From: Candidatus Latescibacterota bacterium
GTDB lineage: Bacteria > Latescibacterota > UBA2968 > UBA8231
Reading direction: 5' to 3'
DNA length: 64,000 bases
Assembly: GCA_965243025.1 (NCBI GenBank)
Contig: CBDETY010000003.1
Location: 6,496,001-6,560,000, forward strand
Shown: positions 1-58,348 of the stretch, piece after piece
Layout: each line of letters opens with the position of its first letter
How positions within the stretch are numbered: position 1 is the stretch's first letter
Program-made: the position numbers and the translations under genes
Notes under the pieces: generated by a model
Database searches by the model: none
Seen by the model: only the letters and a program-made list of their open reading frames with translations
What the model was told of the DNA's origin: nothing

Positions 1-347
1 TGATCCTGTTCCATGCCGCTTTTCCGAACCGATTCGAGCTTCAACCGGTCGTGCCCACCGCCCGGGACGCAGTTACCGGAAAGTTCATCCTGCCGCAGGT
101 TCTGGAAGCGGCAGCCAGCAGCCCGGAGGGTGGGTTTGTGGAGTATCACTTCGACGATCCCGACGACGACTCCGACAGCGCCGATGTTCCCAAGGTGGGG
201 TATGCCCGCGAGTTCAAAGGGGAAATCCAGAGGGCGGACGGAAGCACCTCCCCAACCCACTACGTCATTGGCTCGGGCTTCTACTCACCCGGTCCGACCA
301 GTATCCAGCCGGCTTCCTGGGGACAGATCAAGGATGAGCGATTTTGA
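1..347 (+). CDS. 3' end of secreted Cache-domain protein (starts before window), ends in SWxxIK motif
   Basis: Frame open from base 3: ILFHAAFPNRFELQP...RDAVTGKFILPQVLEAA..PEGGFVEYHFDDP...PKVGYAREF...IGSGFY, closely similar to the Cache region of 56540..58348; C-terminus PTSIQPASWGQIKDERF. Confidence 0.8.
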   Translation, partial: ILFHAAFPNRFELQPVVPTARDAVTGKFILPQVLEAAASSPEGGFVEYHFDDPDDDSDSADVPKVGYAREFKGEIQRADGSTSPTHYVIGSGFYSPGPTSIQPASWGQIKDERF

Positions 348-525
348 GGACTCCTTTCCTTGGCGTTGATATCACAGTAACGGCAGCCAGACCGGAAATG
401 AAGACAAGAAAACGGGTATCGTCCTGTGGTGGTGGTGTCCCGAGTTGGAAGATCCAGATCCCAATACCGCAGATAACTTTTTCCCGAATCGATTTGGGGA
501 TTTTAGCGTGCCTTTTCTGTGCTGA

Positions 526-1107
526 ATGAGAACTATTTTGATTTTCATAGTTTCTACACTATTAATTAACCTCAGCTTTGGAGCTGGAGATTTAATTGAG
601 ACAACGTTTAAAGATTTTGAACGGCTTGAGATTTATTTGAAGGATGATTCTCCCGAAGACGGCAGGAAAGGCGGAGCGCTTTTCGCCTTCGAGCTTCGAA
701 TCTATGATTTTCAGAAAAATGAAACAAAATACACCGAACTTGATACTTACCCCTTAGTCGAAGGAGCGTTTTTCATTCAGGGAGGATTTCAGAAAGCAGG
801 GTATTTGGCCGCTGACGGGGCGGAGGAGATCTATTTGCTTTTTGATTTTGAAGACCTGAATTACACCGGACCTGAGCCCAGCGAGGTGAATCGGATGGTT
901 ATCGAGTTGTCGGTGGCTAATGATTACTCTATCGAAGTTTTCCTGAACGGGATGCCGGAATGGGAGGTTAGCGCTTTTGGGAATGTAAAAGACCTATCCA
1001 ATAAAACTGTCGTCCTTTTGGAGATTGTCCCAAAGGCAGAAGACACCTCTATTGAAGCCCTGTCCTGGGCGGGGATAAAGAACGCCTTCAATAATGCAGG
1101 CCCCTGA
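526..1107 (+). CDS. Secreted hypothetical protein, low GC, ends in SWxxIK motif
   Basis: Hydrophobic signal peptide MRTILIFIVSTLLINLSFG; C-terminus DTSIEALSWAGIKNAF; visibly AT-rich. Confidence 0.75.
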   Translation: MRTILIFIVSTLLINLSFGAGDLIETTFKDFERLEIYLKDDSPEDGRKGGALFAFELRIYDFQKNETKYTELDTYPLVEGAFFIQGGFQKAGYLAADGAEEIYLLFDFEDLNYTGPEPSEVNRMVIELSVANDYSIEVFLNGMPEWEVSAFGNVKDLSNKTVVLLEIVPKAEDTSIEALSWAGIKNAFNNAGP

Positions 1108-1199
1108 CCTCGGCCTCATCCCCGGCTGTGTCCCGTGAGGGCTTGCGGGGAACACCTCGTGCAGGCTCTCTCGGGCCTCCCGTTTCCATTGCGCAATAA

Positions 1200-3855
1200 A
1201 GTTGGGATGCAGGTTATGGTTGGCAGCGACTCGGCCATCCGGCTGGCGACGTCTCCCCCCTCGCGGGGGACGACCTGGTCGATTACGTCCGGAACACCTC
1301 CGTCGACTGTCTCGGGCGCACTCTCCTTATCGTCGACAACCCGTCGATAAGAGCCGACGTACCCACCATCTTCAGCAATGCCAACATGCAGTCGGTGCTC
1401 GCGGGAATCGAAGAGTCGGCCGCGGCATACGACGGGACCAACGGCACCGGGATGCTGCAGCTCTGGCGTTTCGTCCAGATCGGCTACAACTACCACAGGT
1501 ATTTCCCGGAAGAGTCCGGGGTGGGACGGTTCGATGCGGCGACCGACCGCGCCTACCTCGCCGCGTCGGACGCCTTTGCGGGCGCCGACCAATTCAATGG
1601 CCCCAACGACGAGGCCGCCCAGATCTTGTACTACTACTTCGAGGTTGCATTCGCCGCCGGGCTGCGGCCAAATCACCTGCCGCCGATCAAACAGGTTCTG
1701 TCCGGGTTTACACCGGAACGGGCAGCCAGCGAGTCGGAGATATGCCGGGAGGAGGACGGGGGTGTTCGATATTGCGATGTAGTTGCTCCCCAGCGCTGGG
1801 CCTTCGAGACGGTATTGCGCCGGGTAGTGGGATCCTTTGTCGACAGAGACGAAGGAATCATCGCACACGGGGACTTCCATCAAGCCCTGGAACAGGACCC
1901 GGAATTCGTCGACGTCATCCTGAAGGTGACACGCTACGACTTTTACTTTCTCGTTGAAGAAACAATCCCTTTACCCCGCGGCTGCGCTTTTTGGAAAGGG
2001 CCATCCGGATACTCGTCCGGTTGGCCTGGATGGACAGCCTGAGGGAACCCGCGGTCGCGGCGTTAACCTCCGTTCTCTCCTGGCACGAGCGTCTCAGCAG
2101 TCCCTTTCTGGTCGCGGCCAAGGCCCTGGAAGATCTGGTCGACTGCGAGAGCCTGAACATCTGCCGGGAAGCGCTGGAGAGGGAAATTCTCGCCCAGGCT
2201 GTTCCCAACACCTATCCCTTCGACGACGGTGCCATCCTGTTTCAGACTTCCCTGGACCAGGAGGAAGTGGAGCCTTGGTACTACGAACTCAAGCAGGTGC
2301 AGGCCCAGTTCCACCGTCTTGTTGAAACCGATGAGGTCGTAGAGGAGGACAGGGACGTTTTCACCGCCAGGATCTACGACACCCGGTTGGATTACACGCC
2401 GTTTGAAGCATACCTGACCGGCGCGGACACCAGGGGCATTCACAGTGGGGGTGCCTATGGCGGCGGCCTCATGCGCACCTACCTGGAATGGGTACCCGGG
2501 GAAGCCAAAGACGGTTTTGAGGAGACACTTCGGCACGAGTACGCGCACTATCTGGCCGACCGCTTCGGACTGCAGAACTTTGACCCCTGGTTCAATGAAG
2601 GGTTGGCCGAGTTCCTGGTCGGCAGCACCCAGGCCGAGGGCGTGCGCCGTGGATGTGGATTGGGTGCCGCCGCAGGTGGACCTGGAAACCATTCTGATCA
2701 ACGACAGCGGTGATTTGCGCGCGAACATGAATAGATCCCTCAACCTGTTCGTGGGTCTGCGCTTTTCTGACGAAGTGGCTTCCAACGTCGTGTTGACCTG
2801 GACCGCCAGCATGCCTTTACGCCTGGAGGAAGCCCAGAGGTATGACACTGCTTCCCAGTGCGTAATTGTCGCAACAACCGAAACGACTGGCACTTTCGAC
2901 TGCGGCCAGGTCCTGGATGGGGAACCGGGCCTGGTTATCACGATGCTTTTCACCCCGTTGCAGCCGGGCCTGCTCGATTTCTCCGTTGAATTCTCCGCGG
3001 ACGAAGAAGAGATCGAGCCCGCCAACAATATCCAGGTGCTTCGAGGTCTGGTGATCGCCCCGGACCCGAACAATCCTCCCCGGACTCTGACGAAGCTGTC
3101 CGGCGACAGTCAGGAGGAGCTGCCCCGCGAAGATCTTCCCCAACCCCTTACTGTGTCCGTGCTGGATCGGAACGGTTCGGCCTTTGCCGGGGCGATCGTC
3201 ACCTTCCAAGTCGCTTCGGGCGATGGGACACTTTCGGTGGAAACCGCCGTTACCGACACCGGCGGCCTCGCGGCAAGCACCCTGACCCTGGGAGTCCAGC
3301 CGGGAGAAAACACCGTCACCGTATCGGTGGCCGGCCTCGATCCGGTGACCTTCACCGCCACCGCAAAGGTTACCACCGACTTCGACGGCGACGGCGAGAC
3401 CGGCTTCTCCGACTTCTTCCTGTTCGCAGACGCCTTCGGCACCAGCGATCCCCGCTTCGACCTCGACAGCAGCGGCAGCGTCGACCTCGGCGACTTCTTC
3501 CTGCTGGCCGACCACTTCGGAAGATCCTGCCCGCGGCAAGCTGCTCGTCCTTGCCCGGGAGATGATCGGACTGCCCGACGGACCCCAGCTGCAGCAGAAC
3601 GCCCCTAACCCCTTCAACAGCCGTACCGTCATCTCCTGGTTTCAGCTGCGGTCGGGTCCTGCCCGAGTGGAGGTGTTCGCCCTGACCGGGCAGCGGGTGG
3701 CGGTGGTGCACCGGGAGCCCACAAAGGCCGGAATCCATCGGGTTCACTGGGACGGCCGCGACGACCAGGGCCGTCCCCTGGCCAGCGGGGTCTACCTGTA
3801 CCGGCTGGTTTCCGACCACGGGATTCAGACGCGCAAGCTCACCATGTTGAAATGA
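1200..3855 (+). pseudogene. Decayed M9 collagenase-like metallopeptidase with DUF11/Ig-like, EF-hand/dockerin-like and PNPFN (T9SS-A/FlgD-like) CTD
   Basis: Pieces in successive frames (1200-~1975, ~1975-~2645, ~2645-~3520, ~3520-3855); HEYAHY...PWFNEGLAEF gluzincin motif; DFDGDGETGFSDFFLFADAFG repeat; LQQNAPNPFN...WDGRD...SGVYLYRL; no signal peptide. Confidence 0.7.
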
Positions 3856-9934: not shown

Positions 9935-9941
9935 CGGGCGC

Positions 9942-9970: not shown

Positions 9971-9975
9971 CGAAA

Positions 9976-41077: not shown

Positions 41078-41403
41078 GTGATGCTGTTCCTCCTGTCGAG
41101 GCAGGGCACCGGTCACCCTGGCGGGGGGACGCATGAACTTGCCGCGCGCCGGCCCATGGAGTCGGGGAAAGCTGTCCCGGACTGGTTATAGCAACCCTTT
41201 GGGGGTCAGTCAACAGGGGGGAGGCAGGCAAGGTGGCTGGAAGGTTGCACAAGTGGCCGCAGGGCGAAGATTCGCCGGGGTCGGGACTGGCACCAACACA
41301 GTTGCGAAATCCGAAAAACAGCTTGATGAGGGGGGGAGGGGTTTATATTTTGGCCGCCAAAATCTCCGGGAAGTGCGTTCATCTCTCACAAAGGAGAAAT
41401 CAG

Positions 41404-42375
41404 ATGATGTCCGGGAGAAATTGCACGCGTTTCACAGCGGCGGCCGTCGCAACGGTCGTTGCCTTGATGGGAGCCGCCGAGGCCCAGTGGGAGCGGGCCA
41501 AGGTTTACGACCTCCCGAAGTTCACGCAGCCCCCCGTCCTCGACGGGGACCGCTTCACGGTGGAGGACGAGTGGGCGGGCACCCTGGCCCTCGAGTGCTC
41601 CCCCTCGGTGGTGTCGGCGGACGGCGGCGAGTTCGGCTGGCGCGACGCTGAAAACCAGTGGAGCAACGTCAGCGCCAACCAGCTGGTCCAGAGCGAAGGC
41701 GAGGATGGGGCCATCGCCCGCACCGACGCCGACCTCTGGACCCTGATCTACCACGCATGGGACGACGATGCCGTCTACTTCTTCGTCGAGACCCGCGACA
41801 ACGTGCGCGACGTCTCCGACGGGGGCGCGGAGCCGTTCCTGTGGTGGGAGCGCGACAGCATAACCATCCATTTCGACCTGCTCAACGAGGACATCAACTA
41901 CGATCAGGCGACCGACACCTTCAGCGGCACAGGCTACAACGCCATCAACTTCGTGGCCGCGCCGATGAACTCGAGCGAAGTGACCCGCACTTACGAGAAC
42001 ATCGTGCAGGGCAAGCGGGAATTTCACCAGGATCCCGACATCCTCGAGGGAATGGAGTACGGGTTCCGCGATGCCGGCGACGAGTTCGGCGGCGAAGCCG
42101 ACTACACGATCGAAGGCAGGGTCACCTGGGATGCCCTGGTGCGGGGCGGCAACCTGCCCTCCCCGCCGGAGGCGGGCTCCGAAATGGGCTTCTCGTGGAT
42201 CCCCCTGGATCCCGACAACGACGAGTCGTACGGCGGACAGCTGCAGTGCGAGGGCTGGATCCCCGAGCTGGCGACCTACTCCACCTGGATCTTCTCCGAG
42301 ACGCCTGCCGGACCTTCGGCGACGGCGGTGGAAGAGGATTCCTGGGCTGACATCAAGAAAACCTTCGTCGACTAG
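41404..42375 (+). CDS. Secreted CBM9/DOMON-like sugar-binding protein with SWxxIK tail (copy 1)
   Basis: Signal peptide ending AEA; PPVLDG..EW, AWDDDA.YFF.E.RD, WERDS, Y.IEG..W..L; SD aaggag. Confidence 0.75.
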   Translation: MMSGRNCTRFTAAAVATVVALMGAAEAQWERAKVYDLPKFTQPPVLDGDRFTVEDEWAGTLALECSPSVVSADGGEFGWRDAENQWSNVSANQLVQSEGEDGAIARTDADLWTLIYHAWDDDAVYFFVETRDNVRDVSDGGAEPFLWWERDSITIHFDLLNEDINYDQATDTFSGTGYNAINFVAAPMNSSEVTRTYENIVQGKREFHQDPDILEGMEYGFRDAGDEFGGEADYTIEGRVTWDALVRGGNLPSPPEAGSEMGFSWIPLDPDNDESYGGQLQCEGWIPELATYSTWIFSETPAGPSATAVEEDSWADIKKTFVD

Positions 42376-42508: not shown

Positions 42509-44530
42509 TTGCCCGGAGTAGCGGCCGAGGTCGACGACGTGTCCTGGCCACCCGGATCCGTACGGCGAGTGCCGGAGTGCGCCCCGAGGGCATCCGGGCT
42601 GACCGTCCGGTCGATGACCCTGGGCCTGGCGCTCGTCCTGGCCGTGTGCATCGGGGGGCCCTGCTCCCTGTGGGTGATCGGTTCCAACGATTTCACCTGG
42701 TCCCACTTTCCCGACGGCGTCGGGATTCCCTTTCTGTTCCTGGTAGCGGGGAACATCATTCTCCGTTGGCTGCGGCCCGGATGGGTCCTGAGCCCCGCCG
42801 AGCTCATCACCATCATCGTCATGGGTCTGGTGGTGACCGGGATCCCGATCTTCCTGGTCGGCTACCTCCTCTCGATCCCGACCACGCCCCACTACTTCGC
42901 CTCGCCCGAAAACCAATGGGGCAGGTACGTCGTGCCCTACCTGCCCGACTGGCTGCTGCCGAGCAACGAGGGGCTCGCCATGACGTGGTTCTTCGAAGGC
43001 CTGCCCTTCGGACAGCCCGTGCCGTGGTCGACCCTGCTGCAGGCCTGGGTCTTCCCCCTTGCCATGTGGCTCACCTTCATCGGCGCCCTCTACTTCGCCT
43101 GCTTCGTCCTCGTCGTCATCCTGCGCAAGCAATGGGTCGAGCGGGAGCGGCTGGACTTCCCCCTCATGCGGGTGCCGGAGGCGCTGCTGGAGAGGGGGAC
43201 GGGGTCGTCCCCGGTTCCCGCCCTGCTTCGCAGCCGGGTATTCTGGATCGGTGCCGCCCTCCCGCTGGGCATCATTCTGTGGAACATCTCCGGCTATTTC
43301 TACCACTTCATCCCCCAGATTCCCTTCCACTATCAGGTTCAGGTCGCCCGCGGCTTCCCGACCATGGAGTTCAACCTGAACGGCCCCATCATCGGGTTCA
43401 TGTACTTCGTGAACCTCAACGTGTCGTTCAGCATCTGGTTCTTCTACCTGCTGACGACGGTGGAAGAGGGAATCTTCAATCGCTTCGGCATCGGCGTCAC
43501 CGAGGGGAATGCCTTCGTCTGGGGGCTGCCTTCGACGTCGTGGCAGAGCTGGGGGGCCTTCGTTTTCATGGTCCTCTGGGGGCTGTGGATGGCCCGGAGC
43601 CATCTGCGGGACGTGATTCGCAAGGCCCTGGACTCCCGTCACCCCGTGGACGACCGCGGGGAGCTGCTGCCCTACCGGATCGCCGTGACGGGCTTTGCCG
43701 TCGCCCTCCTCTACATGCTGGTGTGGCTCAATCGGGCCGGGATGTCCTGGCCGGTGGCGGGCCTGTTCCTCGCGTGCGTGCTGATCGCCTATCTCGGCAT
43801 CACCCGCCTGGTGATACAGGGAGGAGTCTACTTCGTGTCTACCCCGGTGGTGGCCCAGGCGATGACGATGGAGACCTTCGGCGCCAACGCGATCTCGCCT
43901 CATGGACTGGGGGCTCTCGGGTTGAGCTACTCGTTCTTCGGCGACGTCCAGTCGGTGTTCATGCCGTCGGCCGCCCACGCCGCGCGGCTCCGCGACAGGA
44001 TGCAGGTCGGGCGAACCGGGCTGTCGGTTGCCATCCTGCTCGCCGTGGTCGTGGGGTTCGCCGCATCCATCGGCTGCATCCTCTACATGGGGTACGACCA
44101 GGGGGCTTCCAACTTCAACTCCTGGTTCTACCGGGTCTCCTCCGGCGCCGGTGTGCTGACCTTCAACGACGTCATGGGCAAGGTCAAGAACCCCGCAGGA
44201 CCGGACGGCTCCAAGCTCGGTTTCTTCGGCGCCGGCGGCTTGCTGATGGGCGCGTTGACTTTCATGCAGTACCGCTTCCCGTGGTGGCCGCTCCATCCCA
44301 TCGGGCTGACCATCGCATCGGTGTGGATGATCCGGCGCCAGGCCGCCGCCATCTTCCTGGCGTGGTCGGCGAAGACCGTCATCCTGCGCTTCGGCGGCCT
44401 CGAGCTCTACCGCCGGGCGGCGCCGTTCTTCATCGGGCTCATCCTGGGGCAGTGGATCGGGGTGGGAATCTCGTTCGTCGTCGATCTCCTGTTCTTCTAC
44501 GGGGACGGCCATGTCATCATGCATGCGTGA
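42509..44530 (+). CDS. DUF6785/DUF6784 multi-TM putative transporter (copy 1)
   Basis: EL..I, YFA.PEN.W, RKQWVERERL.FP, SFSIWFFYLL, RFPWWPLHPIG, LR.GG..LYRRA.PFF.GL. Confidence 0.8.
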   Translation: MPGVAAEVDDVSWPPGSVRRVPECAPRASGLTVRSMTLGLALVLAVCIGGPCSLWVIGSNDFTWSHFPDGVGIPFLFLVAGNIILRWLRPGWVLSPAELITIIVMGLVVTGIPIFLVGYLLSIPTTPHYFASPENQWGRYVVPYLPDWLLPSNEGLAMTWFFEGLPFGQPVPWSTLLQAWVFPLAMWLTFIGALYFACFVLVVILRKQWVERERLDFPLMRVPEALLERGTGSSPVPALLRSRVFWIGAALPLGIILWNISGYFYHFIPQIPFHYQVQVARGFPTMEFNLNGPIIGFMYFVNLNVSFSIWFFYLLTTVEEGIFNRFGIGVTEGNAFVWGLPSTSWQSWGAFVFMVLWGLWMARSHLRDVIRKALDSRHPVDDRGELLPYRIAVTGFAVALLYMLVWLNRAGMSWPVAGLFLACVLIAYLGITRLVIQGGVYFVSTPVVAQAMTMETFGANAISPHGLGALGLSYSFFGDVQSVFMPSAAHAARLRDRMQVGRTGLSVAILLAVVVGFAASIGCILYMGYDQGASNFNSWFYRVSSGAGVLTFNDVMGKVKNPAGPDGSKLGFFGAGGLLMGALTFMQYRFPWWPLHPIGLTIASVWMIRRQAAAIFLAWSAKTVILRFGGLELYRRAAPFFIGLILGQWIGVGISFVVDLLFFYGDGHVIMHA

Positions 44531-49949: not shown

Positions 49950-50210
49950 TCGGCAGTGCGCGGCATAGGGACCGGCTCCTTGCCCTTTCGGCGAACAACA
50001 GGTCGCGGGTCAGCCTCGCCTTGTGCTCCTGCGCCGAAGGCTGCGCCCACAGGTTGTCGACCCCATGGGACCGGTTCGAGGTCGAACAGCTCGCCGTATG
50101 CACGGTGGAAATAAACGCTGAGCTTGCAGGGGCTGTCGACTCAGGTCTTCTGGTGGATGGTGTCGGGCTCGTGGCGATTCTCGACGACGGCGTGGTCGCG
50201 GGCGGTCTCC
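49950..50210 (-). pseudogene. C-terminal remnant of a sulfatase
   Basis: Across frames: RDHAVVENRHEPDTIHQKT*..KLSVY...YGELFDLE / VDNLW / LLFAE / GKEP..MPR; internal stop and frameshifts. Confidence 0.65.
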
Positions 50211-50296
50211 CGCTCGCCGTGCCGACACCGCGTGATCGGTCCAGTCATCGAAGCCGGCCCTGGAATACCCGCTGCACGGAGAGACGACGGCTCCCT

Positions 50297-50401
50297 TGCT
50301 GCGGGATCGGCGGCATGCTGGCCTACGGGTTCGTGCGCGCCCGTTGTGAGGACTGCGGGGCGAGCCAAGCCGTTGCCTTTTTCTGCAAGAAGCGGGTGTT
50401 C
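50297..50401 (+). mobile_element. IS91-family transposase zinc-binding domain remnant
   Basis: CG....LAYGFVRARCEDCG....VAFFCKKR.F matches the IS91 Zn-finger pattern CG..GF..RC..C...VAFSCK.R.F. Confidence 0.65.
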
Positions 50402-50573
50402 CGGCCAGAAAAAGCCGCCCTCGAGAGGGGGCTCCTTTATTTCATGTACAGCAACAATTTTCGGCCACTTACCTATCAATTTATGGTTGACCATCGGACC
50501 CCCACGTCACAGACTTTCCAGGAGGCCGTCACTCGTTGCTACTTGTCGGTTGGGCTCGAGAGGACACTCACCA

Positions 50574-53258
50574 ATGCGCAAAATTCGCGGGACACGGGAC
50601 CTCCGGCTGCGCGGTCTTGTCCTCGCGGCCTGGTGCGGCGTGGGACCGCTTGCGGACGACGCGCACGCCCAGAGCGGCCACAGCCTCCGCGGCAACGCCG
50701 TGGTCGTCGAGGGCGAGTCCCACTGGAATAACTGGAGCTTCCCGGCCGGCACGCTCAAGATAGACGCAGGCGGTGTGCGCCCTCGACTTTGGCGCCGGCA
50801 CACCAACGCCGTCCGCGACATCGTCGACAACCTCCGCTTCAACCCTCCCGATTATCTGAACAAGAAATCCCCGGATGAAATCGAGCTGCTCGACGCCGTC
50901 GACGCGGGCTCGAACAAGGCTGCGGTCGCCAATCTGTTCGACGGCGACATGACGACCTACTGGGAGCCCGAGTTTCCCGAAGGTGTGACTGCGGAGACTC
51001 TGGACCAGCACGGCTGGTTTGCCGTGGACCTGGGCCATTTGCTCACCGGGAACCGAATCGTGCTGCGCTTTGTCGACGAGGGTCTCGGCGATCCGTTCCG
51101 CCTGTTCGAGGTGATGGTTTCCGACGGTCAGAAGCCGGTGAAGGCGCTGGGGGGCGACGCGCTCGATTACACGCGCACATACCAGACGCTGCACCCCAAC
51201 CTCGGCGAGCGCGTCACTGAGATCGATCTCGCGAACCTGCCGGTCGCGGAGCGACGCAAGCGGCTCGTGCGGCTCGTCCAGGTCGTAGTCACCGGCTCTG
51301 CACTGGCGCGCGGGCGCGAGATCTCACGGGATGAGTACGAACGTTTGAGGACCGAAGCGCCGCAGGACACCGGTATGGTCGAGTACAGCAAGAGCCTCGA
51401 GTCCGGAGGTGAGCTCGCGGTAACGAGAGAGCTCTACGATAAACTCGAAGAGGGCCTGCGCGGGCCGATCCGCTATTTCCGCAGGGAGTTGCCGCGCCTC
51501 GCCGAGCTCGAAGTCTGGAGCGAGGGCGACGACATCTTCAAGGAGACCCTCTCCCGGGGCGGCCACTTTTCCCATACGACCACCCACATCCTCGGCGCTG
51601 CCGAGCTCAATCCTCAACTGCTGCTCGATGGGGAGATCGAGACGTATCAGGCCTTCCAGATGATGGCGTCGGGACTGCCGGACGCCTCGTTCCTCGTCGA
51701 TCTCGTAGTCGATCTCGGATCGTTTTTCTGGATCGAAGCGGAGCGCATAGTGCTCAATTTCCGCCCCAGCATATTTGCCTTCACGTTCGGTGAGCTTGCT
51801 CTCGATTTCTCCGACGGCGCGCGCGAAGCTGACGGATCGCTCAAATGGCACAGGCGTGCCTTCACTGCCGGCATCCCCAGGCGCGCGTCAAGCACCGGCT
51901 CGGTGCATCTGTACGCCTTCGACTTCGAACCCGTGAAAGCCCGCTTCTTGCGCATGCAGTACCGGCGTGCGGGAATCAACTCGTACCCGGGGGGGACCAC
52001 CACCGCCTTCATGGGCGAGATACAGTTGCACGGTCGGGGGTACCAGCCGCAGGTCGAGCTGACCTCCGATCTCGTTCAACTGGGCGGCAGCCGCAATCTC
52101 TCCACGATCGAGTGGGTCGCCGACACTCCGCCGGGAACGCGCGTCGAGCTGCAGACCCGCACGGGAAACACCCTCGACACCCTGCTGCACTACTACAAGT
52201 CCGACGGCACCGAGATCAGCGAAGCCCAGTACAACAAGATCCGCATCAAGTCGCAGAAGGGTCCCATCGTGCCCGAGGAGGTCGCCGGCTCCGACTGGGA
52301 ACCCTGGAGCGAGCCGTACGAAATCGCCGGCGGCAGCCAGGTCACGTCACCGTCGCCGCGCAGGCTGCTGAAGATCAGGGCCACGCTGCACTCCGATGAT
52401 CCAGACGTTCACGCGACCCTCAGGGAGGTGCGCCTCAATTTCTCCGAGCCGGTAGCCGACCGGTTGCTGGGTCGTCTGGTGCCCACGCGCGTCGATTCGC
52501 CCGGGGTAGAAGGCGCTTTTTCGCTTTTCGTCGATCTCGAATCCCAGGCCAATCCGTTCGACGAATTCCTGCTGCGCGCACCGCCAGGCATGAAGCTCGC
52601 ATTCGACCCCTCGCGCGAGCACGTGTTTGCGGGGCCCGCTTCTGCGTTTGGGGATCGCGCCGACCCGAAGGCAGACGGCCCGACCGATCGGACGGTCGGC
52701 GACGTTCAGGTCCTGGCGACCGGCGACAGCCTCCAGCTGTCGTTTGCGCCCGTGAGGTCTGGCGTGGAGGTAGTGCGCGTCGATTTCCGGGGCACGCTGT
52801 TCTCGAGCGGGGGGCGACTCCAGGCACTGATGCGCAACTCCGACGACGGCGTGTGGCAGCGGGTCGACGAGGAGGTCACGCGCACTTCCCTGCAGCTCGT
52901 CGCTCAGCCACGGCGCAAGGTGCTCTTCGGATCGCTGGAGCTCGATCCACCGGCGTTCTCCCCGAACGACGACGGCCTCAACGACGCCGTAAAGTTCAAC
53001 TTCACGTTGATGCTCGTCGGCATAAGCGCGGCGGTCGAGGTCGAGATCTTCGATCTGACCGGCCGCCGGCTCAGGCGTCTCGAAGAGCAGCGCCCTGTCA
53101 GTGCGGGCACATACTCGATCGCCTGGGACGGCCGCGACGAGGCGGGTGTAGTGGTTCCCCCGGGCCTGTACGCCGCCCGAGTTCGTCTCGATTCCGACAC
53201 GGAAGGAGCGTCGATCGTCAGCCGGGACCTTCTGCGTAATGTAGCGGTGGTCTACTGA
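50574..53258 (+). CDS. Large secreted protein with discoidin-like repeats and FlgD/CHU_C-like CTD
   Basis: Signal peptide ending AHA; two LxDGD..T units, W.PWS.PY, SPSPRR, FSPNDDGLND...WDGRD..G..VPPG.Y. Confidence 0.75.
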   Translation: MRKIRGTRDLRLRGLVLAAWCGVGPLADDAHAQSGHSLRGNAVVVEGESHWNNWSFPAGTLKIDAGGVRPRLWRRHTNAVRDIVDNLRFNPPDYLNKKSPDEIELLDAVDAGSNKAAVANLFDGDMTTYWEPEFPEGVTAETLDQHGWFAVDLGHLLTGNRIVLRFVDEGLGDPFRLFEVMVSDGQKPVKALGGDALDYTRTYQTLHPNLGERVTEIDLANLPVAERRKRLVRLVQVVVTGSALARGREISRDEYERLRTEAPQDTGMVEYSKSLESGGELAVTRELYDKLEEGLRGPIRYFRRELPRLAELEVWSEGDDIFKETLSRGGHFSHTTTHILGAAELNPQLLLDGEIETYQAFQMMASGLPDASFLVDLVVDLGSFFWIEAERIVLNFRPSIFAFTFGELALDFSDGAREADGSLKWHRRAFTAGIPRRASSTGSVHLYAFDFEPVKARFLRMQYRRAGINSYPGGTTTAFMGEIQLHGRGYQPQVELTSDLVQLGGSRNLSTIEWVADTPPGTRVELQTRTGNTLDTLLHYYKSDGTEISEAQYNKIRIKSQKGPIVPEEVAGSDWEPWSEPYEIAGGSQVTSPSPRRLLKIRATLHSDDPDVHATLREVRLNFSEPVADRLLGRLVPTRVDSPGVEGAFSLFVDLESQANPFDEFLLRAPPGMKLAFDPSREHVFAGPASAFGDRADPKADGPTDRTVGDVQVLATGDSLQLSFAPVRSGVEVVRVDFRGTLFSSGGRLQALMRNSDDGVWQRVDEEVTRTSLQLVAQPRRKVLFGSLELDPPAFSPNDDGLNDAVKFNFTLMLVGISAAVEVEIFDLTGRRLRRLEEQRPVSAGTYSIAWDGRDEAGVVVPPGLYAARVRLDSDTEGASIVSRDLLRNVAVVY

Positions 53259-53399: not shown

Positions 53400-55412
53400 A
53401 TGAGGATACTGGCGACAACATGCATTGCAGCGCTCGCGCTGATGCTCGCAGGCCGCGACCTTGCTGCTCTGACCATCGTCCGCATCGGCGGCCAGGGGCT
53501 ACCGGGCCCTGAACGCGCCAACGACGAGGGGGTCAACTTCGTCCAGCTCACCTGGGAAGAGGCCACGGGCGGTGATTTCGGTTCCACGCGCCTGATCACC
53601 TTCGACGGCGGCTCGATCTCCCCGGTGTTCGCCCCGAAAGACCACAACCTGACGCCGGGCATCCGCGACAACGGCGGCAGCATTCGCAGCTCGACCGCGA
53701 CCGGGCACCTGCTGAACGAAGAGCAGCTCGACAACCTGTTCGACGGCGATCCGGAGACGGTGTACTTCGGTCTCACAGGGATGGGCGACGAGGCTGCCCC
53801 CGGCGGACGGTTTGCCTACAGCATGTACGATCCCGGCTGCGACTGCTGGCTCGACTACAAGCTCCTGGTCTTCGATCTGGGTGCTCCCTACAACGTTGGT
53901 CGCATTCACTTTCACACGCGTCCCGACCGCGCGCTCGATCGCTTCATACCGGCGTTGACTGTGGGTACATCGACAGACAACCCCAGAAAACCCGGTGAGG
54001 TCGATGCCAGAGACAGAGACGTGAGGAAGTTCAAACTCGGGGGATCTCGGCGGGAACTCTGGACGGACCTGGACCACATCGAGTTCGACATCTTGTACGA
54101 GGATTTCGAGAACACCGGGGCTGCCTTCGACCTCAAAACCGGGGGACCGCTCCAGGGGATCATCCTGTTCGCTCCCCTCGACCACTGGGAAATTGCCGAG
54201 TTCGAGATCTACGGTGGTGGGTTCGTGCCGCGCGCGGAATACATCTCGGACATAATCGACCTGGGGCGGCCATCGAGTGTGGACGCCGTGTCGTGGGGCG
54301 GTGAGGTAGCGCCCGGAGCCAGAGTCGAGATCAGTGCGCGCAGCGGCGCTGACGAGGACCCGAATCACTATTGGCGCAACACCTTTCTAGGAGACCGGCG
54401 GTCTCGTTTCGACGCCGACGGAGAGGAGTTGACCTTCAACACCTACCGCAGGCTCGAGGGCGGCGAGGCGGCCGGTATCTCACCTGACAGCGAGAACTGG
54501 GAGTTCTGGACGGCGCCCGCAGACTTTTCCGTGGAGGGACTCGCTCTGACGGCCACGTCGCCGCACGAGTACGCACAGTTCTCCATCGACTTCGAATCCG
54601 GCAACGATGCGGGCAGCCGCCTCGACTACATCCAGTTCGAGGTCACCCAGCCGCCGATCGCATCGCGCGTCGTAGGCGAGATTGTCCCGCTGGAGGCGCG
54701 CCTCGGAGAGGTCACGGAGTTCACCTACAAGCTGCGGCCCGTCGTTCTCCTGGAAGACTCGGGGTTCGACAGCATCCAGATCCACACTCCCATTGCTCCT
54801 GCCGCCATCGATGCCGTGCGCATCGCCTCGCGAACGCTGGGTGAGGAGGAGTACGAAGTCGTTCCCTACAACGGCCGGTTCGTCGTCGTCCGGGTGCCGT
54901 TCGTCGACATTCAGGCCTCGGGTGAGCTGATCGAGATCGACTTCCGCGCCGAAGTGTTCCAGGCTTCCACGTTGTTCCCGGGCAGAGTGTTCGACAGCAC
55001 TCGCCCGCAGGAAGTTCGCCACCGCGTCGAGCCGGGGGACGCAGACCCGCTGGTGGGCGCCGGCAGCCTTACCGTCAGGGCGGAGCGGGGAAGCGGTCGC
55101 GCCATCGAGCGCCTGCGCGTGTCCGCCCTGACTCCAAATGGCGATGGGATCAACGACCTGCTGCAGATCGAGTACGACCTGGTCAATCTCGCCGGGAGCG
55201 TACCTGTCGCCCTGGAGGTGTTCACACTGGCTGGCATTCCGGTCGCCACCCTGGACACGGATTCAGGTGGGAGCGGGCGTTTCACCAGCTCGTGGGACGG
55301 CCGTTCCGGCGCGAGTGAGCGAGTGCCGCCCGGCCTCTACCTTCTGCGCCTTACCGTTCGGGCCGATTCGGGAACCGACCGCGCCGTCGCTGCCGTTCCC
55401 CTCGCCTTCTGA
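53400..55412 (+). CDS. Secreted paralogue with discoidin-like domain and FlgD/CHU_C-like CTD
   Basis: Signal peptide; LFDGDPET, EIAEFEIYG.G, S.IIDLG, GEI.P, TPNGDG.ND...WDGR...VPPG.Y. Confidence 0.75.
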   Translation: MRILATTCIAALALMLAGRDLAALTIVRIGGQGLPGPERANDEGVNFVQLTWEEATGGDFGSTRLITFDGGSISPVFAPKDHNLTPGIRDNGGSIRSSTATGHLLNEEQLDNLFDGDPETVYFGLTGMGDEAAPGGRFAYSMYDPGCDCWLDYKLLVFDLGAPYNVGRIHFHTRPDRALDRFIPALTVGTSTDNPRKPGEVDARDRDVRKFKLGGSRRELWTDLDHIEFDILYEDFENTGAAFDLKTGGPLQGIILFAPLDHWEIAEFEIYGGGFVPRAEYISDIIDLGRPSSVDAVSWGGEVAPGARVEISARSGADEDPNHYWRNTFLGDRRSRFDADGEELTFNTYRRLEGGEAAGISPDSENWEFWTAPADFSVEGLALTATSPHEYAQFSIDFESGNDAGSRLDYIQFEVTQPPIASRVVGEIVPLEARLGEVTEFTYKLRPVVLLEDSGFDSIQIHTPIAPAAIDAVRIASRTLGEEEYEVVPYNGRFVVVRVPFVDIQASGELIEIDFRAEVFQASTLFPGRVFDSTRPQEVRHRVEPGDADPLVGAGSLTVRAERGSGRAIERLRVSALTPNGDGINDLLQIEYDLVNLAGSVPVALEVFTLAGIPVATLDTDSGGSGRFTSSWDGRSGASERVPPGLYLLRLTVRADSGTDRAVAAVPLAF

Positions 55413-55507
55413 TCGCCGGGGCCGGATAGCCCGATCGTCGCGGTTTTGCTACGATCGCGAGCGGACTTCAATCTTCCAGCGCTGCGGGATAGTCTGGTCG
55501 ATCGCAG

Positions 55508-55891: not shown

Positions 55892-55918
55892 ATCCGGCCT
55901 CCTTTTCTTTTCATAGTG

Positions 55919-56191
55919 TCACTTGAGCCATCGGTTCACGGCAGCCCTGAGGGGTTCATCGTCGAAGACAAGCATCCGATACTTGCCACGCTTCTCTGAG
56001 CTTACGAGCCCTGCTTGTTCCAGGAGATCAATGTGCTTGGCCAGGGCCTGTCGGGAGATGGCGACTTCATGCCGCATGATCAAGCGCCCCGTGAGCTCGT
56101 AAAGCGTCTGCTCCCTGCGCTCAGAGAGCTCGTCCAGCATCAACCTCCGTGTTGGGTCCGCGAGTGCCTTGAAGACCAGGTCTTTGTGCAT
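55919..56191 (-). CDS. ArsR/SmtB-family transcriptional regulator
   Basis: VFKALADPTRR..L..L, SRQA..KH..LLE.AGLV...K.G. Confidence 0.9.
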   Translation of the reverse strand: MHKDLVFKALADPTRRLMLDELSERREQTLYELTGRLIMRHEVAISRQALAKHIDLLEQAGLVSSEKRGKYRMLVFDDEPLRAAVNRWLK

Positions 56192-56199
56192 GCGCGCAT

Positions 56200-56229
56200 A
56201 CAATACGCAACCACAGGGTTGCATGTCAA
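56200..56229 (-). promoter_or_regulatory. Leaderless promoter with palindromic ArsR operator
   Basis: Minus strand TTGACA-18 nt-TATTGT, ATG follows 8 nt later; spacer holds GCAACC-N4-GGTTGC (56207-56222). Confidence 0.7.
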
Positions 56230-56539
56230 GGGGCGATTTCCCAGGCTGGCAGGAACCACATCCCCAGTCATTTGCGGGATTGGGTGAAGTGGGTCGTGCG
56301 ACCGTACCGCAAGCTGCCGGGCGCGGCACCGAATCAAGCACCTTCCGGTGGCGAGTCCGTCACAATCGTGGACAGAGAGGTAAAAGTACCTTGGGCGGAT
56401 TTTGCGTTTGCGTGGCGGGTAGAATTCACCTAACGTGCGTTCGCCGATTCGGCCGGAGGCCAAAGCTCCGTTTCTCAGAGCGAGGTCTACCAGTCGTAGT
56501 CTCCAAAGTGACTTTCTCTTTCCGGAAAGGAGAACCGTG

Positions 56540-58348
56540 ATGGTGAAGGCTCGAACCCTGTTCAATCCAGCATCCCTGATTCCTGTAGCCGCTCTGCTCG
56601 TGCTGGCTGGCGTCTTTTCCAATGCGCCTCCCGCCCTGGCAGATTGTCCACCCCCTCCCGGCGTGACATCCCCTGTGGCACCGAGCGTGACGGCGCAACA
56701 GGTGGAAGACGGCAGCGCTGCCCTGAAGGAATTCACGCTGGCCGCGAGGGAACAATTCGTCATGCAGCTCGAGACGGCTGAGAATCTGGGACAAGTGGTA
56801 TACTATGGATGTCTCTTCCGGCAAGAGGGGAGCTATTGGCATTCCGGTTCCACCTACCTCGTAATAATGAGGGCGGATGGCAGTGTTTTGATCCACGCGA
56901 AGAACATGGCATTGTCGAGCAGGCGACTCAACCCCCTTATTTATGCAGAGATCCTTTCTGCCCTGGGAGTACCCTCAACCGTTCTGGCCAACCTGGCATC
57001 TCCCGATTCTGCAATTGCCGTCCAGGCTAAGGCCGAAGTGGTTGATATATTGTCGCAAGAACCGGATGCCGCATTCGATGCGACCACCCCTGTACAAGAC
57101 CTGCGACCTGCCATACCGGGTGCCTCCGGCTATGCCGCCACATATTTGTCGGACTTTTTCAGAGGTCCGCTTGTGATGATAGCCGGTTTCGAGCTCAATG
57201 AAACTCATGTAATTGAAGAAGAGATCGATCACATTACCCCGGCCATTACCGCCAGGGACGTGGTAGATCGAGAAACCCTGAAAGCCTTCGTAACGGCAGC
57301 AGGGGAGTACTGTCTCGAACTTCGGAAAACCGGAAATTTCCCGGGTGGGATAGCCAGGATCGCACTTCGGGATCCGGACGGGCCCTGGAGACACGGTTCC
57401 GTGTACCTCTATGTCCTGGATACTACGAGCAACGTAATCCAAATACACGCTGCGTTTCCGAACAGGTACGAGCTTCGACCTCTGATAGCGACCGTCCGGG
57501 ACGCGGTTACCGGAGAACTCATACTACCGCAGGTCATCGAAGCGGCGAAAAGTGACCCGGAAGGCGGCTTCGTGGAGTATTACTTCGACGATCCCAATGA
57601 CGACACCGACAGCGCCGAAATCCCCAAGGTGGGATACGCACGCGAGTTCAAAACGCAAACCGAGTTAGGCGGAAGGGTAGTCCCGTACAACTTCATCATC
57701 GGGTCGGGGTTTTATGGGCGTGCGCCCGGTGTCGGGACGGGTCCCGGCACGGTCGTGGAGGCCACGGTGCTGGGCGACGCGGTGGAGGGGCTGGACGTCG
57801 GGTTTTCCCGCGCCATCGCCGGCCGTTCCCGCCATTACGCCTGGAAGGCGGTCACCGATGCCGACGGCCAGGCGACCCTGACCATTTCCGGCGGGAGGCA
57901 GGTGAGTGGTTTCTATGAGGCCCGTGCCCGCAACGCCGACGGCGAGGTCGTCGGACAGTGGCACAGCATTCCCCTGAATCGCGACAAACGCCAGGTCCTG
58001 GAACTGCCTCTGGGCGGCCTCATGAGGGTCGTACGGGTCGAGCCGTTGGCCGCGGCAAAGGCGGTGGCGTCGGCCAGCGGGCTTGCGCCCAATGTGCCCA
58101 ACCCCTTCAACAGCGAAACGCAGATTGCCTACCGCCTGTCCAATTCCGGCCCGGTGCAGCTGGTGGTCTACAATGTGCTGGGTCAGCCGGTGCGCACCCT
58201 GGTGGATGAGTTCCAGGCCGCCGGCTCCTACCAGGTCCAGTGGGATGCCCGCGACCAGCAGGGCGTCTCGCTGTCGTCAGGGATCTATATCACCCGCCTG
58301 AGCTACCCCGAGGGGGTGCAGACGCGCAGGCTGCTCTACCTCAAGTAG
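56540..58348 (+). CDS. Secreted double-Cache-domain protein with Ig-like region and PNPFN (T9SS-A/FlgD-like) CTD
   Basis: Signal peptide ending ALA; W.SGS.YL and W.HGS.YL Cache units, GGFVEYYFDDP, IGSGFY; N.PNPFN...WDARD..G...SG.Y; SD aaggag. Confidence 0.8.
   Translation: MVKARTLFNPASLIPVAALLVLAGVFSNAPPALADCPPPPGVTSPVAPSVTAQQVEDGSAALKEFTLAAREQFVMQLETAENLGQVVYYGCLFRQEGSYWHSGSTYLVIMRADGSVLIHAKNMALSSRRLNPLIYAEILSALGVPSTVLANLASPDSAIAVQAKAEVVDILSQEPDAAFDATTPVQDLRPAIPGASGYAATYLSDFFRGPLVMIAGFELNETHVIEEEIDHITPAITARDVVDRETLKAFVTAAGEYCLELRKTGNFPGGIARIALRDPDGPWRHGSVYLYVLDTTSNVIQIHAAFPNRYELRPLIATVRDAVTGELILPQVIEAAKSDPEGGFVEYYFDDPNDDTDSAEIPKVGYAREFKTQTELGGRVVPYNFIIGSGFYGRAPGVGTGPGTVVEATVLGDAVEGLDVGFSRAIAGRSRHYAWKAVTDADGQATLTISGGRQVSGFYEARARNADGEVVGQWHSIPLNRDKRQVLELPLGGLMRVVRVEPLAAAKAVASASGLAPNVPNPFNSETQIAYRLSNSGPVQLVVYNVLGQPVRTLVDEFQAAGSYQVQWDARDQQGVSLSSGIYITRLSYPEGVQTRRLLYLK

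Follow-up and report, generated by a model that had tools for sequence, protein, structure and literature searches.

How can one and the same protein body come to carry two different C-terminal tails? The question is raised by two tandem-Cache genes in the window, i.e. the whole stretch of 64,000 nucleotides from the genome (G000) of a sponge-symbiotic Candidatus Latescibacterota bacterium which was analysed here. One protein ends in a short peptide, below called the tag, the other in an Ig-like region plus a C-terminal sorting domain (CTD). The first-pass annotation had described a divergence of the two proteins at the motif GSGFY; its coordinates, its sequences and the point of divergence were confirmed by the open reading frames (ORFs), BLAST and a paralogue alignment. 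The features are:

1..347, + strand: 3' end of the tag-ended tandem-Cache gene (sequence, paralogue alignment, model fold)
294..347, + strand: short tag P-T-S-I-Q-P-A-S-W-G-Q-I-K-D-E-R-F and stop (tag HMM, i-E 5.8e-4; pLDDT under 50)
526..1107, + strand: 193-aa signal-peptide protein ending in the tag variant ...D-T-S-I-E-A-L-S-W-A-G-I-K-N-A-F-N-N-A-G-P-stop (ORF, tag HMM)
41401..42375, + strand: CBM9-like secreted protein, tag end ...T-A-V-E-E-D-S-W-A-D-I-K-K-T-F-V-D-stop
50124-53258 and 53400-55412, + strand: two further CTD-ended proteins
56540..57715, + strand: signal peptide and tandem-Cache body up to GSGFY, GC3 0.61 (Pfam, alignment, GC3)
57716..57748, + strand: Gly/Pro linker G-R-A-P-G-V-G-T-G-P-G, where body and tail histories part (alignment, sliding identity)
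57746..58045, + strand: Ig-like beta-sandwich, first strand T-V-V-E-A-T-V-L (strand E11-19 of the tail model, sequence)
58100..58348, + strand: T9SS type A / FlgD_ig-type CTD and stop (HMMs, GC3, model)
61621..62577, + strand: CBM9-like secreted protein, tag end ...T-A-V-E-E-D-S-W-A-R-I-K-A-S-F-A-Q-stop

The ORF at the start of the window (3..347, +) is open at its 5' end, and its C-terminus reads ...IGSGFYSPGPTSIQPASWGQIKDERF-stop. The complete gene, which encodes 403 aa, has its start 865 nt upstream of the window; the protein begins signal-peptide-like. The second gene (ORF 56435/56540..58348, +) continues beyond the shared Cache body with about 210 extra residues. Over 409 aa the two bodies share 52.3% identity (E 5.9e-118). 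In an AlphaFold model the tag-ended body was confidently folded (pLDDT 81) into two helix-plus-sheet modules, and Foldseek matched this model to the sCache chemoreceptor domains 5g4y, 4k08 and 2qhk (prob 1.0, TM to target 0.62-0.64, E 2e-4 to 5e-4). Model and matches agree on a Cache fold of the PAS-like kind, including a long helix at the N-terminus. The Pfam family dCache_2 was borderline, with 21.1-21.6 bits for the tag form and 30.2 bits for the CTD-ended window gene at a cut-off of 26.5; more distant paralogues reached 69-162 bits. As a whole, the findings are probably best explained if both genes encode members of a secreted tandem-Cache family of a sensor or ligand-binding type, which has no membrane anchor and carries a separable C-terminal address.

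The long tail was identified by profile and by model. It scored 36.6 bits with FlgD_ig (cut-off 27) and 34.3 bits with TIGR04183 (cut-off 23), covering residues 520-598 of 602; PF18962 remained below its cut-off (20 vs 27). In an AlphaFold model of the tail, residues 129-209 formed seven strands (block pLDDT 69-89) arranged as a beta-sandwich, and the linker residues 1-9 had a pLDDT under 50. Judged by HMMs and model, the long tail is a T9SS type A CTD and thus a member of a described class (TIGR04183 / PF18962, FlgD_ig-like PF13860); cleavage by PorU and secretion are predicted.

The short tail is of another kind. Residues 387-403 of the 403-aa model had a pLDDT under 50 and no secondary structure. 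A Pro/Gly linker precedes S-W-G-Q-I-K, four more residues and the stop, which fits the pattern [ST]-W-[GA]-x-[IVL]-K. Within G000 the window tag was found by the tag HMM with an i-E of 5.8e-4, as a diverged copy of a genome-wide tag, [TS]-A-V-E-x-x-[ST]-W-[GA]-R-I-K-A-S-L. As a module it consists of a linker, T-A-V-E-x-x-[ST]-W-G-x-I-K, 3-6 residues and the stop, about 17 residues altogether.

Six close paralogues in G000, one in the tag form and five in the Ig+CTD form, were aligned, and the two window proteins diverged directly after GSGFY. The common part does not end there, however; a linker and a T-x-V-E strand are present in both tail types. The Ig module started with T-x-V-E/D/K in 11/11 cases and this stretch is the first strand of the tail model; T-V-V-E in the Ig module corresponds to T-A-V-E in the first half of the tag. 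[TS][AS]V[EQ] was present at most 45 residues before the CTD in 14/181 CTD proteins vs 0.7% of control windows. Probably the Gly/Pro/Glu-rich linker together with the T-x-V-E strand, the common start of both modules, serves as the recombination joint.

The histories of bodies and tails were compared in quick-search IQ-TREE trees with AU tests. The four tag-ended rows among 21 did not form one clade (AU p 1.75e-10). All five G000 tails constituted a single clade (99*), and the body-tree pair G000_6493045 plus G160_L045 was rejected when forced on the tail alignment (AU p 4.7e-54). In sliding windows the G000_6493045 body had an identity of 0.89-0.98 with its G160 orthologue vs 0.52-0.85 with the G000 paralogue, and for the tail the relation was reversed. 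Nucleotide identity in sliding windows crossed over at the GSGFY column. Two G160 tails were 100% identical over three windows. Between G000 and G160, PorV gave a baseline of 70% identity, the Cache bodies 94% and 89%. Within G000, identity at synonymous sites was 0.73-0.85 for tails vs 0.56-0.73 for bodies, a modest excess and a less clear signal than that of trees and sliding windows. By trees and identity profiles, then, tails are homogenised within each genome and bodies keep a separate history, partly exchanged between genera.

This bears on a compositional break which the first-pass annotation had placed near 57720. The break is real. In 200-nt windows GC was 0.53-0.565 over 56800-57699 and 0.65-0.73 over 57600-57899, and GC3 rose from 0.606 in the body to 0.853 in the tail of gene 56540..58348. 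Does the step record that this Cache gene recently received a foreign Ig+CTD tail in a single graft? The gene has the sharpest GC3 step of the five paralogues (0.61 to 0.85), and with paralogue G000_26003 it shares 84% identity in the tail at 60% in the body, as a graft would predict. Yet GC3 stepped in the same direction in all five G000 paralogues and in the orthologues from G130, G133, G150 and G160. Moreover, the usual GC3 of window genes is 0.8-0.9; the tail fits this range and the body is the odd part. The single clade of the G000 tails fits ongoing conversion among resident copies, not one import. A single graft is thus quite unlikely, and the step does not date one recent event in this gene. 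We suggest that the higher GC3 of the tail reflects repeated conversion, and that the lower GC3 of the body reflects a separate, partly foreign history of the bodies.

In which direction were tails exchanged? In one lineage, represented by G127 and G131, a patch of about 52 nt comprising tag and stop is located inside a CTD-type gene, and Ig/CTD remnants follow 3' of the stop. The insert is flanked by a 10-nt direct repeat. Then come 75 nt of the Ig start, nearly identical to intact genes; in G131 remnants of the Ig middle and of the CTD end are also recognisable downstream of the stop. The tag-ended body of G127_L022 is 90-91% identical to those of the CTD-ended G000_6493045 and G160_L045. 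DNA 93-97% identical to the tag over about 30 nt was found in other Cache genes, three of them on the same contig at a distance of 2.5-4.7 kb, and the patch was probably copied from one of these neighbouring tag-ended genes. The alignments and trees show Ig+CTD replaced by the tag more than once. After entry of a patch with tag and stop into a CTD-type gene, the remaining Ig+CTD would be left to decay. Wherever a direction was readable, it led from CTD to tag; a CTD grafted onto a tag form was not seen. In G000, no CTD remnant was found up to 700 nt downstream of tag genes (0/134; controls 0/670) and no donor copy of the window tag beyond the conserved core of 18-20 nt; so the direction of the swap in the window gene is inferred from five of six paralogues and from the other lineage.

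The proposal of a natural tail swap, in which tails recombine onto cargo at the junction, is thus supported by tree discordance, the identity crossover and the patch with its Ig/CTD remnants, as well as by the presence of the same Ig+CTD module on four non-Cache bodies. The C-terminal address is very probably modular and recombining. The usual module would be the Ig-like domain plus T9SS type A CTD, the alternative an unstructured tag of about 17 residues.

How widespread is the tag? In G000, 134 ORFs ended in a tag, 181 in a CTD and none in both (stop-to-stop calls, not gene-caller models). The pattern [ST]W..[IVLM]K had 207 matches in 56,895 six-frame ORFs of at least 60 aa; 152 were within 25 residues of the stop and 126 within 10. 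Chance does not account for the short tail. W and K were invariant in 133/133 copies and five further positions strongly conserved; T/S occupied position -7 in 130/133, A position -6 in 106 and V position -5 in 120. In 110/133 copies the stop followed 3-6 residues after K, with no hydrophobic stretch; the variant here has an A-S-L ending plus one to three acidic residues. A crude score assigned a signal-peptide-like start to 120 of the 134 tag-ended ORFs.

Outside G000, four more families in the same phylum carried the tag: f6, f7 and f9 (14/14 loci checked) as well as f12 (7 profile matches). Judged by eye, about 49 of 112 loci carried it in records labelled Eisenbacteria, Fermentibacteria, Poribacteria, Gemmatimonadota and Latescibacterota. 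Neither Pfam nor NCBIfam matched the tag in any of 11 tag-ended proteins, even with E allowed up to 1. A homologue search with the C-terminal 40 residues of one such protein gave two candidates and one match, in its own cluster, the word index being blind to so short a tag. No paper or family model for a WGxIK-type tag was found in the literature and family databases searched.

Is the short tail a mere scar of truncated, decaying genes, devoid of a function of its own? In G127 and G131 the tag form did arise by an event which cut off and inactivated Ig+CTD. However, invariance of W and K with five more conserved positions, 134 copies on 21 clusters of intact bodies, recurrence of the tag in several phyla with its distance to the stop unchanged and the confident model fold of the tag-ended body render a scar highly improbable. 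The tag rather appears to serve the cell envelope as a functional address or docking label.

The first-pass annotation had considered both tails as functionally equivalent export modules. In this form the proposal was not supported. By BLAST the tag occurred on 21 clusters of bodies, including CBM9-like, Cache, PD40 propeller, fasciclin, Temptin_C and lamin-tail domain proteins, with 101 of the 134 copies in one CBM9-like family. Two clusters were exclusive, one of 101 members with tags only and one of 91 with CTDs only. Median ORF length was 327 aa for tag-ended and 791 aa for CTD-ended proteins. Such largely disjoint cargo, with tag cargo about half as long, fits different destinations as well as equivalence. 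The missing fold of the tag and T9SS-bearing lineages which lack it also argue against equivalence as stated. The expectation that other cargo alternates between the tails did hold at the level of domains, where five tag-ended proteins matched CTD-ended ones.

Does the tag operate in a T9SS setting? G000 has two PorU matches above cut-off (621 and 615 bits, cut-off 420) and three when PorU-family members are counted at E 1e-30 or below. A PorV-like barrel gene adjoins one PorU; it is below its cut-off (95.6 + 49.4 bits vs 250). On these PorU and PorV-like matches T9SS machinery is present. In tag-bearing genomes of other phyla PorU-like genes were found in 5/5, two of them above cut-off. Conversely, families f2-f4 (56 genomes) had no PorU match above cut-off, and five tag-pattern matches there were read and are not tags. 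As f2 and f4 retain a PorV-like gene, 'no T9SS, no tag' depends solely on the PorU cut-off; it amounts to at most one or two independent contrasts. The T9SS-bearing families f10 (two genomes) and f14 (one genome) had no tag profile match at 96-98% completeness, thus the tag is not a general requirement of T9SS. That the tag acts in a T9SS setting is accordingly close to an even call, on the lower side. In such a setting it could be a minimal signal or, slightly more likely, a docking element for small secreted proteins. The docking version would combine an orphan first strand with a short amphipathic W-x-x-I-K-x-x-L turn and engage a partner at the surface or outer membrane.

Alternatively, the tag might be an envelope retention or docking peptide unrelated to T9SS, such as a tether in the periplasm or an amphipathic anchor lying in the plane of the membrane, and a change from CTD to tag would then move a protein from the surface into the periplasm. 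The tag has neither motifs nor fold nor an HMM match of a CTD, T9SS-positive lineages without it exist, its cargo is small (median ORF 327 aa) and partly of typically periplasmic kind (PD40 propeller, Cache), and by helical-wheel reasoning W, I and L would share one face if W-G-R-I-K-A-S-L were helical. Against this, strict conservation across phyla points to one specific protein partner and not to generic membrane affinity, other cargo is typically extracellular (CBM9-like, fasciclin, lamin-tail domain), and PorU-like genes accompanied the tag in every tag-bearing lineage tested. We regard a role outside T9SS as doubtful.

A bolder and rather unlikely proposal can be formulated. The tag of about 17 residues would be a new minimal envelope-sorting or docking signal common to several uncultured phyla, which any secreted protein could acquire in evolution once about 50 nt are copied into its linker. 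Its T-A-V-E half would be an orphan first Ig/CTD strand, and through strand complementation tag-ended proteins would plug into a partner that is either displayed by T9SS or located in the outer membrane. If true, the cell surface would have two tiers, one of CTD proteins with a covalent anchor and one of lectins and sensors which are docked by the tag and can be exchanged.

A reader of the tag is expected in the tag-bearing families of the phylum and should be absent from T9SS-bearing families without tag. No reader protein was found. A second PorU was dropped as a candidate: 31 g14 genomes carry one or two PorU-family matches at E 1e-30 or below, mostly one, against three in G000, yet 31/31 were positive for the tag pattern. 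Neighbours of both window Cache genes were not suggestive (M9 peptidase fragment, Big_1 protein, glyoxalase, HTH regulator, CN hydrolase), and no pairing of tag genes with a conserved neighbour was seen.

How does the tag compare with known sorting signals? Homologous extracytoplasmic domains with different C-terminal sorting signals in different proteins are known as 'choice-of-anchor' domains, and the homologous Cache bodies with different tails follow this pattern. In the tripartite signals PEP-CTERM, LPXTG and GlyGly-CTERM a motif precedes a membrane-spanning helix and a cluster of basic residues. The tag is not of this type, as at most a few polar residues follow K. Donor-strand complementation is established for chaperone-usher and type V pili; a likeness exists insofar as the tag's first half corresponds to strand A of the replaced Ig-like module, and we take this only as a lead.

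Like T9SS type A CTDs, the tag is located at the extreme C-terminus of signal-peptide proteins after a flexible linker and is portable between unrelated cargo in genomes with PorU and PorV-like genes. Unlike these it has about 17 residues, lacks the B, D and E motifs, forms no beta-sheet in the model and is recognised by no HMM, and with a length below about 40 residues it does not belong to any described T9SS CTD type. According to PMC11969387, natural CTDs can shrink to three strands; 'short CTDs' of Prevotella intermedia have 40-55 residues, and work cited there found the 22 C-terminal residues of Hbp35 to be absolutely required. The tag is not half as long as the shortest CTD described. 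Type B CTDs (PMC12618676; see also PMC9143113) are a second T9SS signal class with dedicated PorP/SprF-type shuttles; they coexist with type A in one genome, with a partner and a final place of their own, and the same logic is proposed for the tag. A PorP/SprF adaptor as partner of the tag was dropped because, unlike for type B CTDs, there was no match in G000, and across 168 genomes of the phylum none exceeded the cut-off.

Sorting signals at the C-terminus determine what bacteria display at their surface, and in sponge symbionts this surface is the interface with the host. In evolutionary terms the W-G-x-I-K tag would be a functional alternative to a T9SS domain. New are the DNA fossils of the conversion from CTD to tag, the shared T-A-V-E joint and the discordance of body and tail. 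One sensor-like body, at least 90% identical, carries three different tails in three genera, a rare view of address-label exchange.

Two minor observations are added. The protein encoded at 526..1107, which has no Pfam or NCBIfam family match, is specified by a gene of low GC (GC3 0.48). Separately, Cache-type binding proteins move between co-resident symbiont genera and are refitted with local tails.

Two genes of the window encode tandem-Cache proteins which share a body up to the residues GSGFY and then part:

3..347, + strand: 3' part of the tag-ended Cache gene, a 5'-open ORF ending IGSGFYSPGPTSIQPASWGQIKDERF-stop
56540..58348, + strand: CTD-ended Cache gene, of the same architecture to GSGFY, with 210 more residues

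Extension of the first ORF upstream into the source genome (G000; 6.8 Mb, 65.4% GC) yielded a complete protein of 403 aa with a signal-peptide-like start. Over 409 aa the two bodies had an identity of 52.3% (E 5.9e-118). This bore out the first-pass annotation in that one Cache body carries two tails. The CTD-type body matched dCache_2 with 30.2 bits (cut-off 26.5), the tag-ended protein with only 21.1-21.6 bits. An AlphaFold model of the latter (mean pLDDT 81, pTM 0.78) had two helix-plus-sheet modules and resembled the solved single-Cache sensor domains 5g4y, 4k08 and 2qhk (probability 1.0, TM to target 0.62-0.64). A membrane-spanning or output domain was found in neither protein; both are free secreted tandem-Cache proteins. 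The long tail, an Ig-like domain followed by a C-terminal domain (Ig+CTD), ends as an ordinary T9SS type A CTD: residues 520-598 of 602 matched Pfam FlgD_ig (36.6 bits, cut-off 27) and the NCBIfam T9SS type A sorting domain TIGR04183 (34.3 bits, cut-off 23).

The short tail, a tag of about 17 residues with the core W-G-x-I-K, was a genome-wide C-terminal element in G000. Among 56,895 six-frame ORFs of at least 60 aa the pattern [ST]W..[IVLM]K matched 207 times, 152 of these within 25 residues of the stop. A profile derived from the pattern matches and an iterated CTD profile identified 134 ORFs with a C-terminal tag and 181 with a C-terminal CTD; none of them carried both. Conservation in 133 copies aligned on the Trp was as follows.

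Conserved positions of the tag (position relative to Trp: residue, copies)
-7: T or S, 130/133
-6: A, 106/133
-5: V, 120/133
-4: E, 80/133
-1: S or T, 130/133
0: W, 133/133
+1: G or A, 133/133
+2: R, 101/133
+3: I, 112/133
+4: K, 133/133
+5: A, 101/133

The Lys was 3-6 residues from the stop in 110 of the 133 copies. Judged from its sequence, the tag is conserved in the manner of a functional peptide. No Pfam or NCBIfam model covered it, even at E up to 1, and in the AlphaFold model its residues 387-403 had a pLDDT under 50 and were without secondary structure. The window tag, T-S-I-Q-P-A-S-W-G-Q-I-K-D-E-R-F, is a diverged copy of the genome-wide element. A signal-peptide-like start was scored in 120 of the 134 tag ORFs (crude hydrophobic-stretch score), and 63 had another tag gene within 3 kb. 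The gene at 526..1107, next to the window's tag-ended Cache gene, terminates in another tag variant. Its 193-aa product is without a family match, its GC3 is 0.48 within a 65% GC genome, and it looks recently acquired.

Tag-ended bodies sorted into 21 BLAST clusters. The largest comprised 101 paralogous secreted proteins of ~320 aa with the mature N-terminus A-H-x-G-D-R-V-Y-P, often in tandem arrays (e.g. G000 C3:494863-505965, 2836379-2839222 and 5972502-5981654); it was present in 24/24 genomes of the window's taxonomic family and in 0/16 sister-family genomes. Three scanned members had no Pfam or NCBIfam match; in an Atlas feature search one member fell among clusters partly bearing CBM9_1. 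A direct CBM9_1 match was recorded for four further tag-ended proteins (three of four scanned). Other tag-ended bodies were Cache, PD40 propeller, fasciclin, Temptin_C and lamin-tail domains and several small family-less proteins. Median stop-to-stop length was 327 aa for tag ORFs and 791 aa for CTD ORFs. The initial proposal that the two tails are functionally equivalent was not upheld: the largely disjoint cargo sets and the unlike sizes suggest alternatives rather than equivalents.

The address end is a separable module which recombines at a fixed joint. The Ig+CTD composite occurred in 11 of the 181 CTD proteins, 7 of Cache type and 4 with other bodies. The tail of a WD40 propeller protein was 60% identical (E 2e-78), as was that of an unassigned ~215-aa body (60%, E 9e-83), in which the module starts T-A-V-E-A-T-V. 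In all 11 composites the Ig module began with T-x-V-[EDK], a stretch that formed the first strand (E11-19) when the long tail of the window gene was modelled with AlphaFold (pLDDT 72.6). The motif [TS][AS]V[EQ] was present at most 45 residues ahead of the CTD in a further 14 of the 181 CTD proteins, compared with 0.7% of 865 control windows. Since T-x-V-E starts are common to both tails, both start with the same short strand after a Gly/Pro/Glu-rich linker. In relatives, tag and Ig forms lose alignment at this point (S-T-V-T-R-T-E-A-T-W... versus S-T-V-T-R-T-E-V-E-A-T-V-L...). Possibly microhomology at the joint guides the exchanges.

Bodies and tails had separate histories. Fourteen Ig+CTD tails clustered by genome: the five G000 tails formed one side of a starred branch (99), and those of the relatives' genomes G160 and G167 grouped together. 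The body tree paired G000_6493045 with G160_L045 and G000_949863 with G160_L023 (96 and 99, both starred). Imposing this pairing on the tail alignment cost 102.4 log-likelihood units (AU p 4.7e-54). In 40-codon windows the body of G000_6493045 had an identity of 0.89-0.98 to its G160 partner versus 0.52-0.85 to a G000 paralogue; for its tail the values were 0.60-0.86 and 0.69-0.95, respectively, and the switch occurred at the GSGFY column. This discordance and the position of the switch supported the tail swap by recombination which the first-pass annotation had proposed. In the two adjacent Cache paralogues of G160 (contig C69, loci L023 and L045) body identity was 0.58-0.83 and the tails were 100% identical over three windows, ~100 codons of Ig-module DNA, which reads as a very recent conversion tract. 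At the protein level, bodies were 94% and 89% identical across genera and tails 66-67%; within a genome bodies were 65-67% and tails 83-89% identical. G000 PorV was 70-71% identical to PorV of G160/G167 and 65-66% to that of G127/G150. With bodies at 89-94% and PorV at 70%, similarity between genera is far greater for the Cache bodies than for a resident envelope gene. The likeness (G000:C3:6493045-6496347 versus G160 contig C69) suggests a recent exchange between co-resident sponge symbionts; very strong constraint on the bodies would be the alternative to such an exchange.

Both tails were found when those of the Cache paralogues were tabulated. The six close G000 paralogues had 1 tag and 5 Ig+CTD tails. 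Among more distant G000 Cache proteins two ended in Ig+CTD and one, a single Cache of 190 aa, in the tag. Relatives were surveyed at 30 loci from the same taxonomic family. Full-length Ig+CTD forms were present in G004, G127, G130, G132, G133, G136, G144, G150, G160 and G167, tag-ended relatives in G127, G150 and G131. A third group consisted of many single-Cache proteins of 210-400 aa with the C-terminus ...S-W-G-[QS]-L-K-.... A quick-search tree of 21 bodies required 4 changes to account for the four tag-ended rows, and starred branches forced at least 3. Constraining these rows together was 109.7 log-likelihood units worse (AU p 1.75e-10); therefore, the Cache family gained the tag more than once.

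Ig+CTD can give way to the tag without other change to the body. The tag-ended body of G127 was 90-91% identical to the CTD-ended bodies of both G000_6493045 and G160_L045 and is the cleanest case, one body with three tails. This gene (L022) terminates ...S-T-V-T-R-E-A-T-W-G-Q-L-K-S-R-F-stop. Right behind the stop, in another frame, follows V-T-R-T-E-V-E-A-T-V-L-G-D-A-V-E-G-L-T-V-E-F, the start of the Ig module, after which homology stops. Its DNA equals that of four intact CTD-type genes plus a ~52-nt insert bearing tag and stop; a 10-nt direct repeat is on both sides of the insert, and in the 75 nt 3' of it the gene hardly differs from the intact ones. In G131 (L033) remnants of the Ig middle and the CTD end persist past the tag stop, including the CTD's own stop. 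G150 (L047) has a downstream flank in common with G131, the remnants being lost. These fossils set the direction of the swap in the G127/G131 lineage, Ig+CTD replaced by tag. The tag-coding 30 nt were 93-97% identical to other Cache-gene tags in these relatives' genomes, and three of the matching copies share the contig of the G127 gene, at distances of 2.5-4.7 kb from it. The donor probably was a neighbouring tag-ended paralogue, from which, in the simplest reading, a short patch would have been carried by gene conversion or template switching into the linker of an Ig+CTD gene. In G000, CTD remnants were found behind 0/134 tag genes (controls 0/670), and a donor copy of the window's own tag was not found.

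A compositional break near ~57720, suspected earlier, was real and located at the junction. In 200-nt windows GC was 0.53-0.565 over 56800-57699, 0.65-0.73 over 57600-57899 and then 0.635-0.675 as far as the stop; GC3 climbed from 0.606 (body) to 0.853 (tail). It is not a mark of this one gene. GC3 rose from 0.68 to 0.78-0.79 in three of the other four G000 Ig+CTD paralogues and from 0.765 to 0.81 in the fourth, and orthologues stepped likewise (G130, 0.56 to 0.77; G150, 0.57 to 0.80; two G160 genes, 0.75 to 0.93 and 0.69 to 0.87; G133, 0.62 to 0.72). Because most window genes have a GC3 of 0.8-0.9 (rough gene calls), it is the body that stands out, and the tail is ordinary.

At the DNA level, the pattern encoding W-[GA]-R-I-K-A was present in 67/75 genomes of the window's family (f1) and matched 91 times in G000, versus 0 for the reversed control. 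Twenty matches outside this family were read individually. In families f6, f7 and f9 of the phylum 14/14 were true tags (...T-W-G-R-I-K-A-S-F-K-stop), in f5 one of two was doubtful, and none of four in f2 and f4 was a tag. The tag profile had 17 matches in one f9 genome and 7 in one f12 genome; two genomes of f10 and one of f14, 96-98% complete, gave no match. When named genome records across phyla were scanned for a single codon variant encoding T-W-G-R-I-K-A, at least 112 loci were returned; among the 112 matches listed, ~49 were C-terminal tags as judged from their flanks.

Tag loci among the matches listed
Eisenbacteria: 17
Poribacteria: 3
Fermentibacteria: 2
Latescibacterota: 2
Gemmatimonadota: 1, uncultured
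'bacterium' MAGs: ~21
Other labels: 3

The remaining listed matches were a Dehalococcoidia internal motif, a Paenibacillus/Cohnella protein and noise. T-W-G-R-I-K-A-M-F-N-D is a conserved internal motif of the Dehalococcoidia protein (loci L115-L187) and the Paenibacillus/Cohnella protein has a similar string; both are false positives wherever a tag search ignores the distance to the stop.

PorU was above cut-off in f1 and f5-f14 and in none of 56 genomes of f2-f4. The latter had only a partial match (a ~1,900-aa frame, PorU model positions 5-737) and kept a PorV-like gene; their T9SS may be remodelled or reduced. Five of five tag-bearing genomes of other phyla had PorU-like genes, two above cut-off. 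In addition to the PorV-like gene beside PorU, G000 has three more weak PorV-like matches (C3:2155250-2155729, 6485826-6486404 and 4735685-4736251), the second of which is 10 kb ahead of the window.

We infer that the tag is a sorting or docking label. It appears to occur only where PorU-like genes exist, a pattern of few contrasts weakened by kinship, and T9SS without the tag is common. A role tied to T9SS-type surfaces is the reading we favour, if tentatively; a T9SS-independent tether, its main rival, is rather unlikely. The tag could be a minimal T9SS-setting signal. Or it could consist of an orphan strand and a short W-x-x-I-K-x-x-L turn, which would dock small lectin-like and sensor-like proteins onto a partner. 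Homologous domains with alternating sorting signals are a known pattern ('choice-of-anchor'), which the window's Cache family resembles. The window adds a Latescibacterota-type expansion of the tag, conversion fossils in which the CTD is replaced by the tag, a joint common to both tails, and body/tail discordance with exchange between genera. No description of the tag itself was found in the paper texts searched or in four scans of family models. The shortest CTDs found in print are those of Prevotella intermedia, 40-55 residues with motifs B, D and E (PMC11969387); type B CTDs have dedicated PorP/SprF shuttles (PMC12618676).

Two further window loci deserve mention. The region 2445-3855 encodes a Big_1/invasin-like protein that also has a dockerin-like repeat. 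A frameshift near 3525 separates it from its CTD, which resumes out of frame in an ORF of 168 aa; the locus is either pseudogenic or misassembled. At 42509-44527 a DUF6785 plus DUF6784 protein (363 and 86 bits) has a CBM9-like gene with the tag on one side and two genes without assignment on the other.
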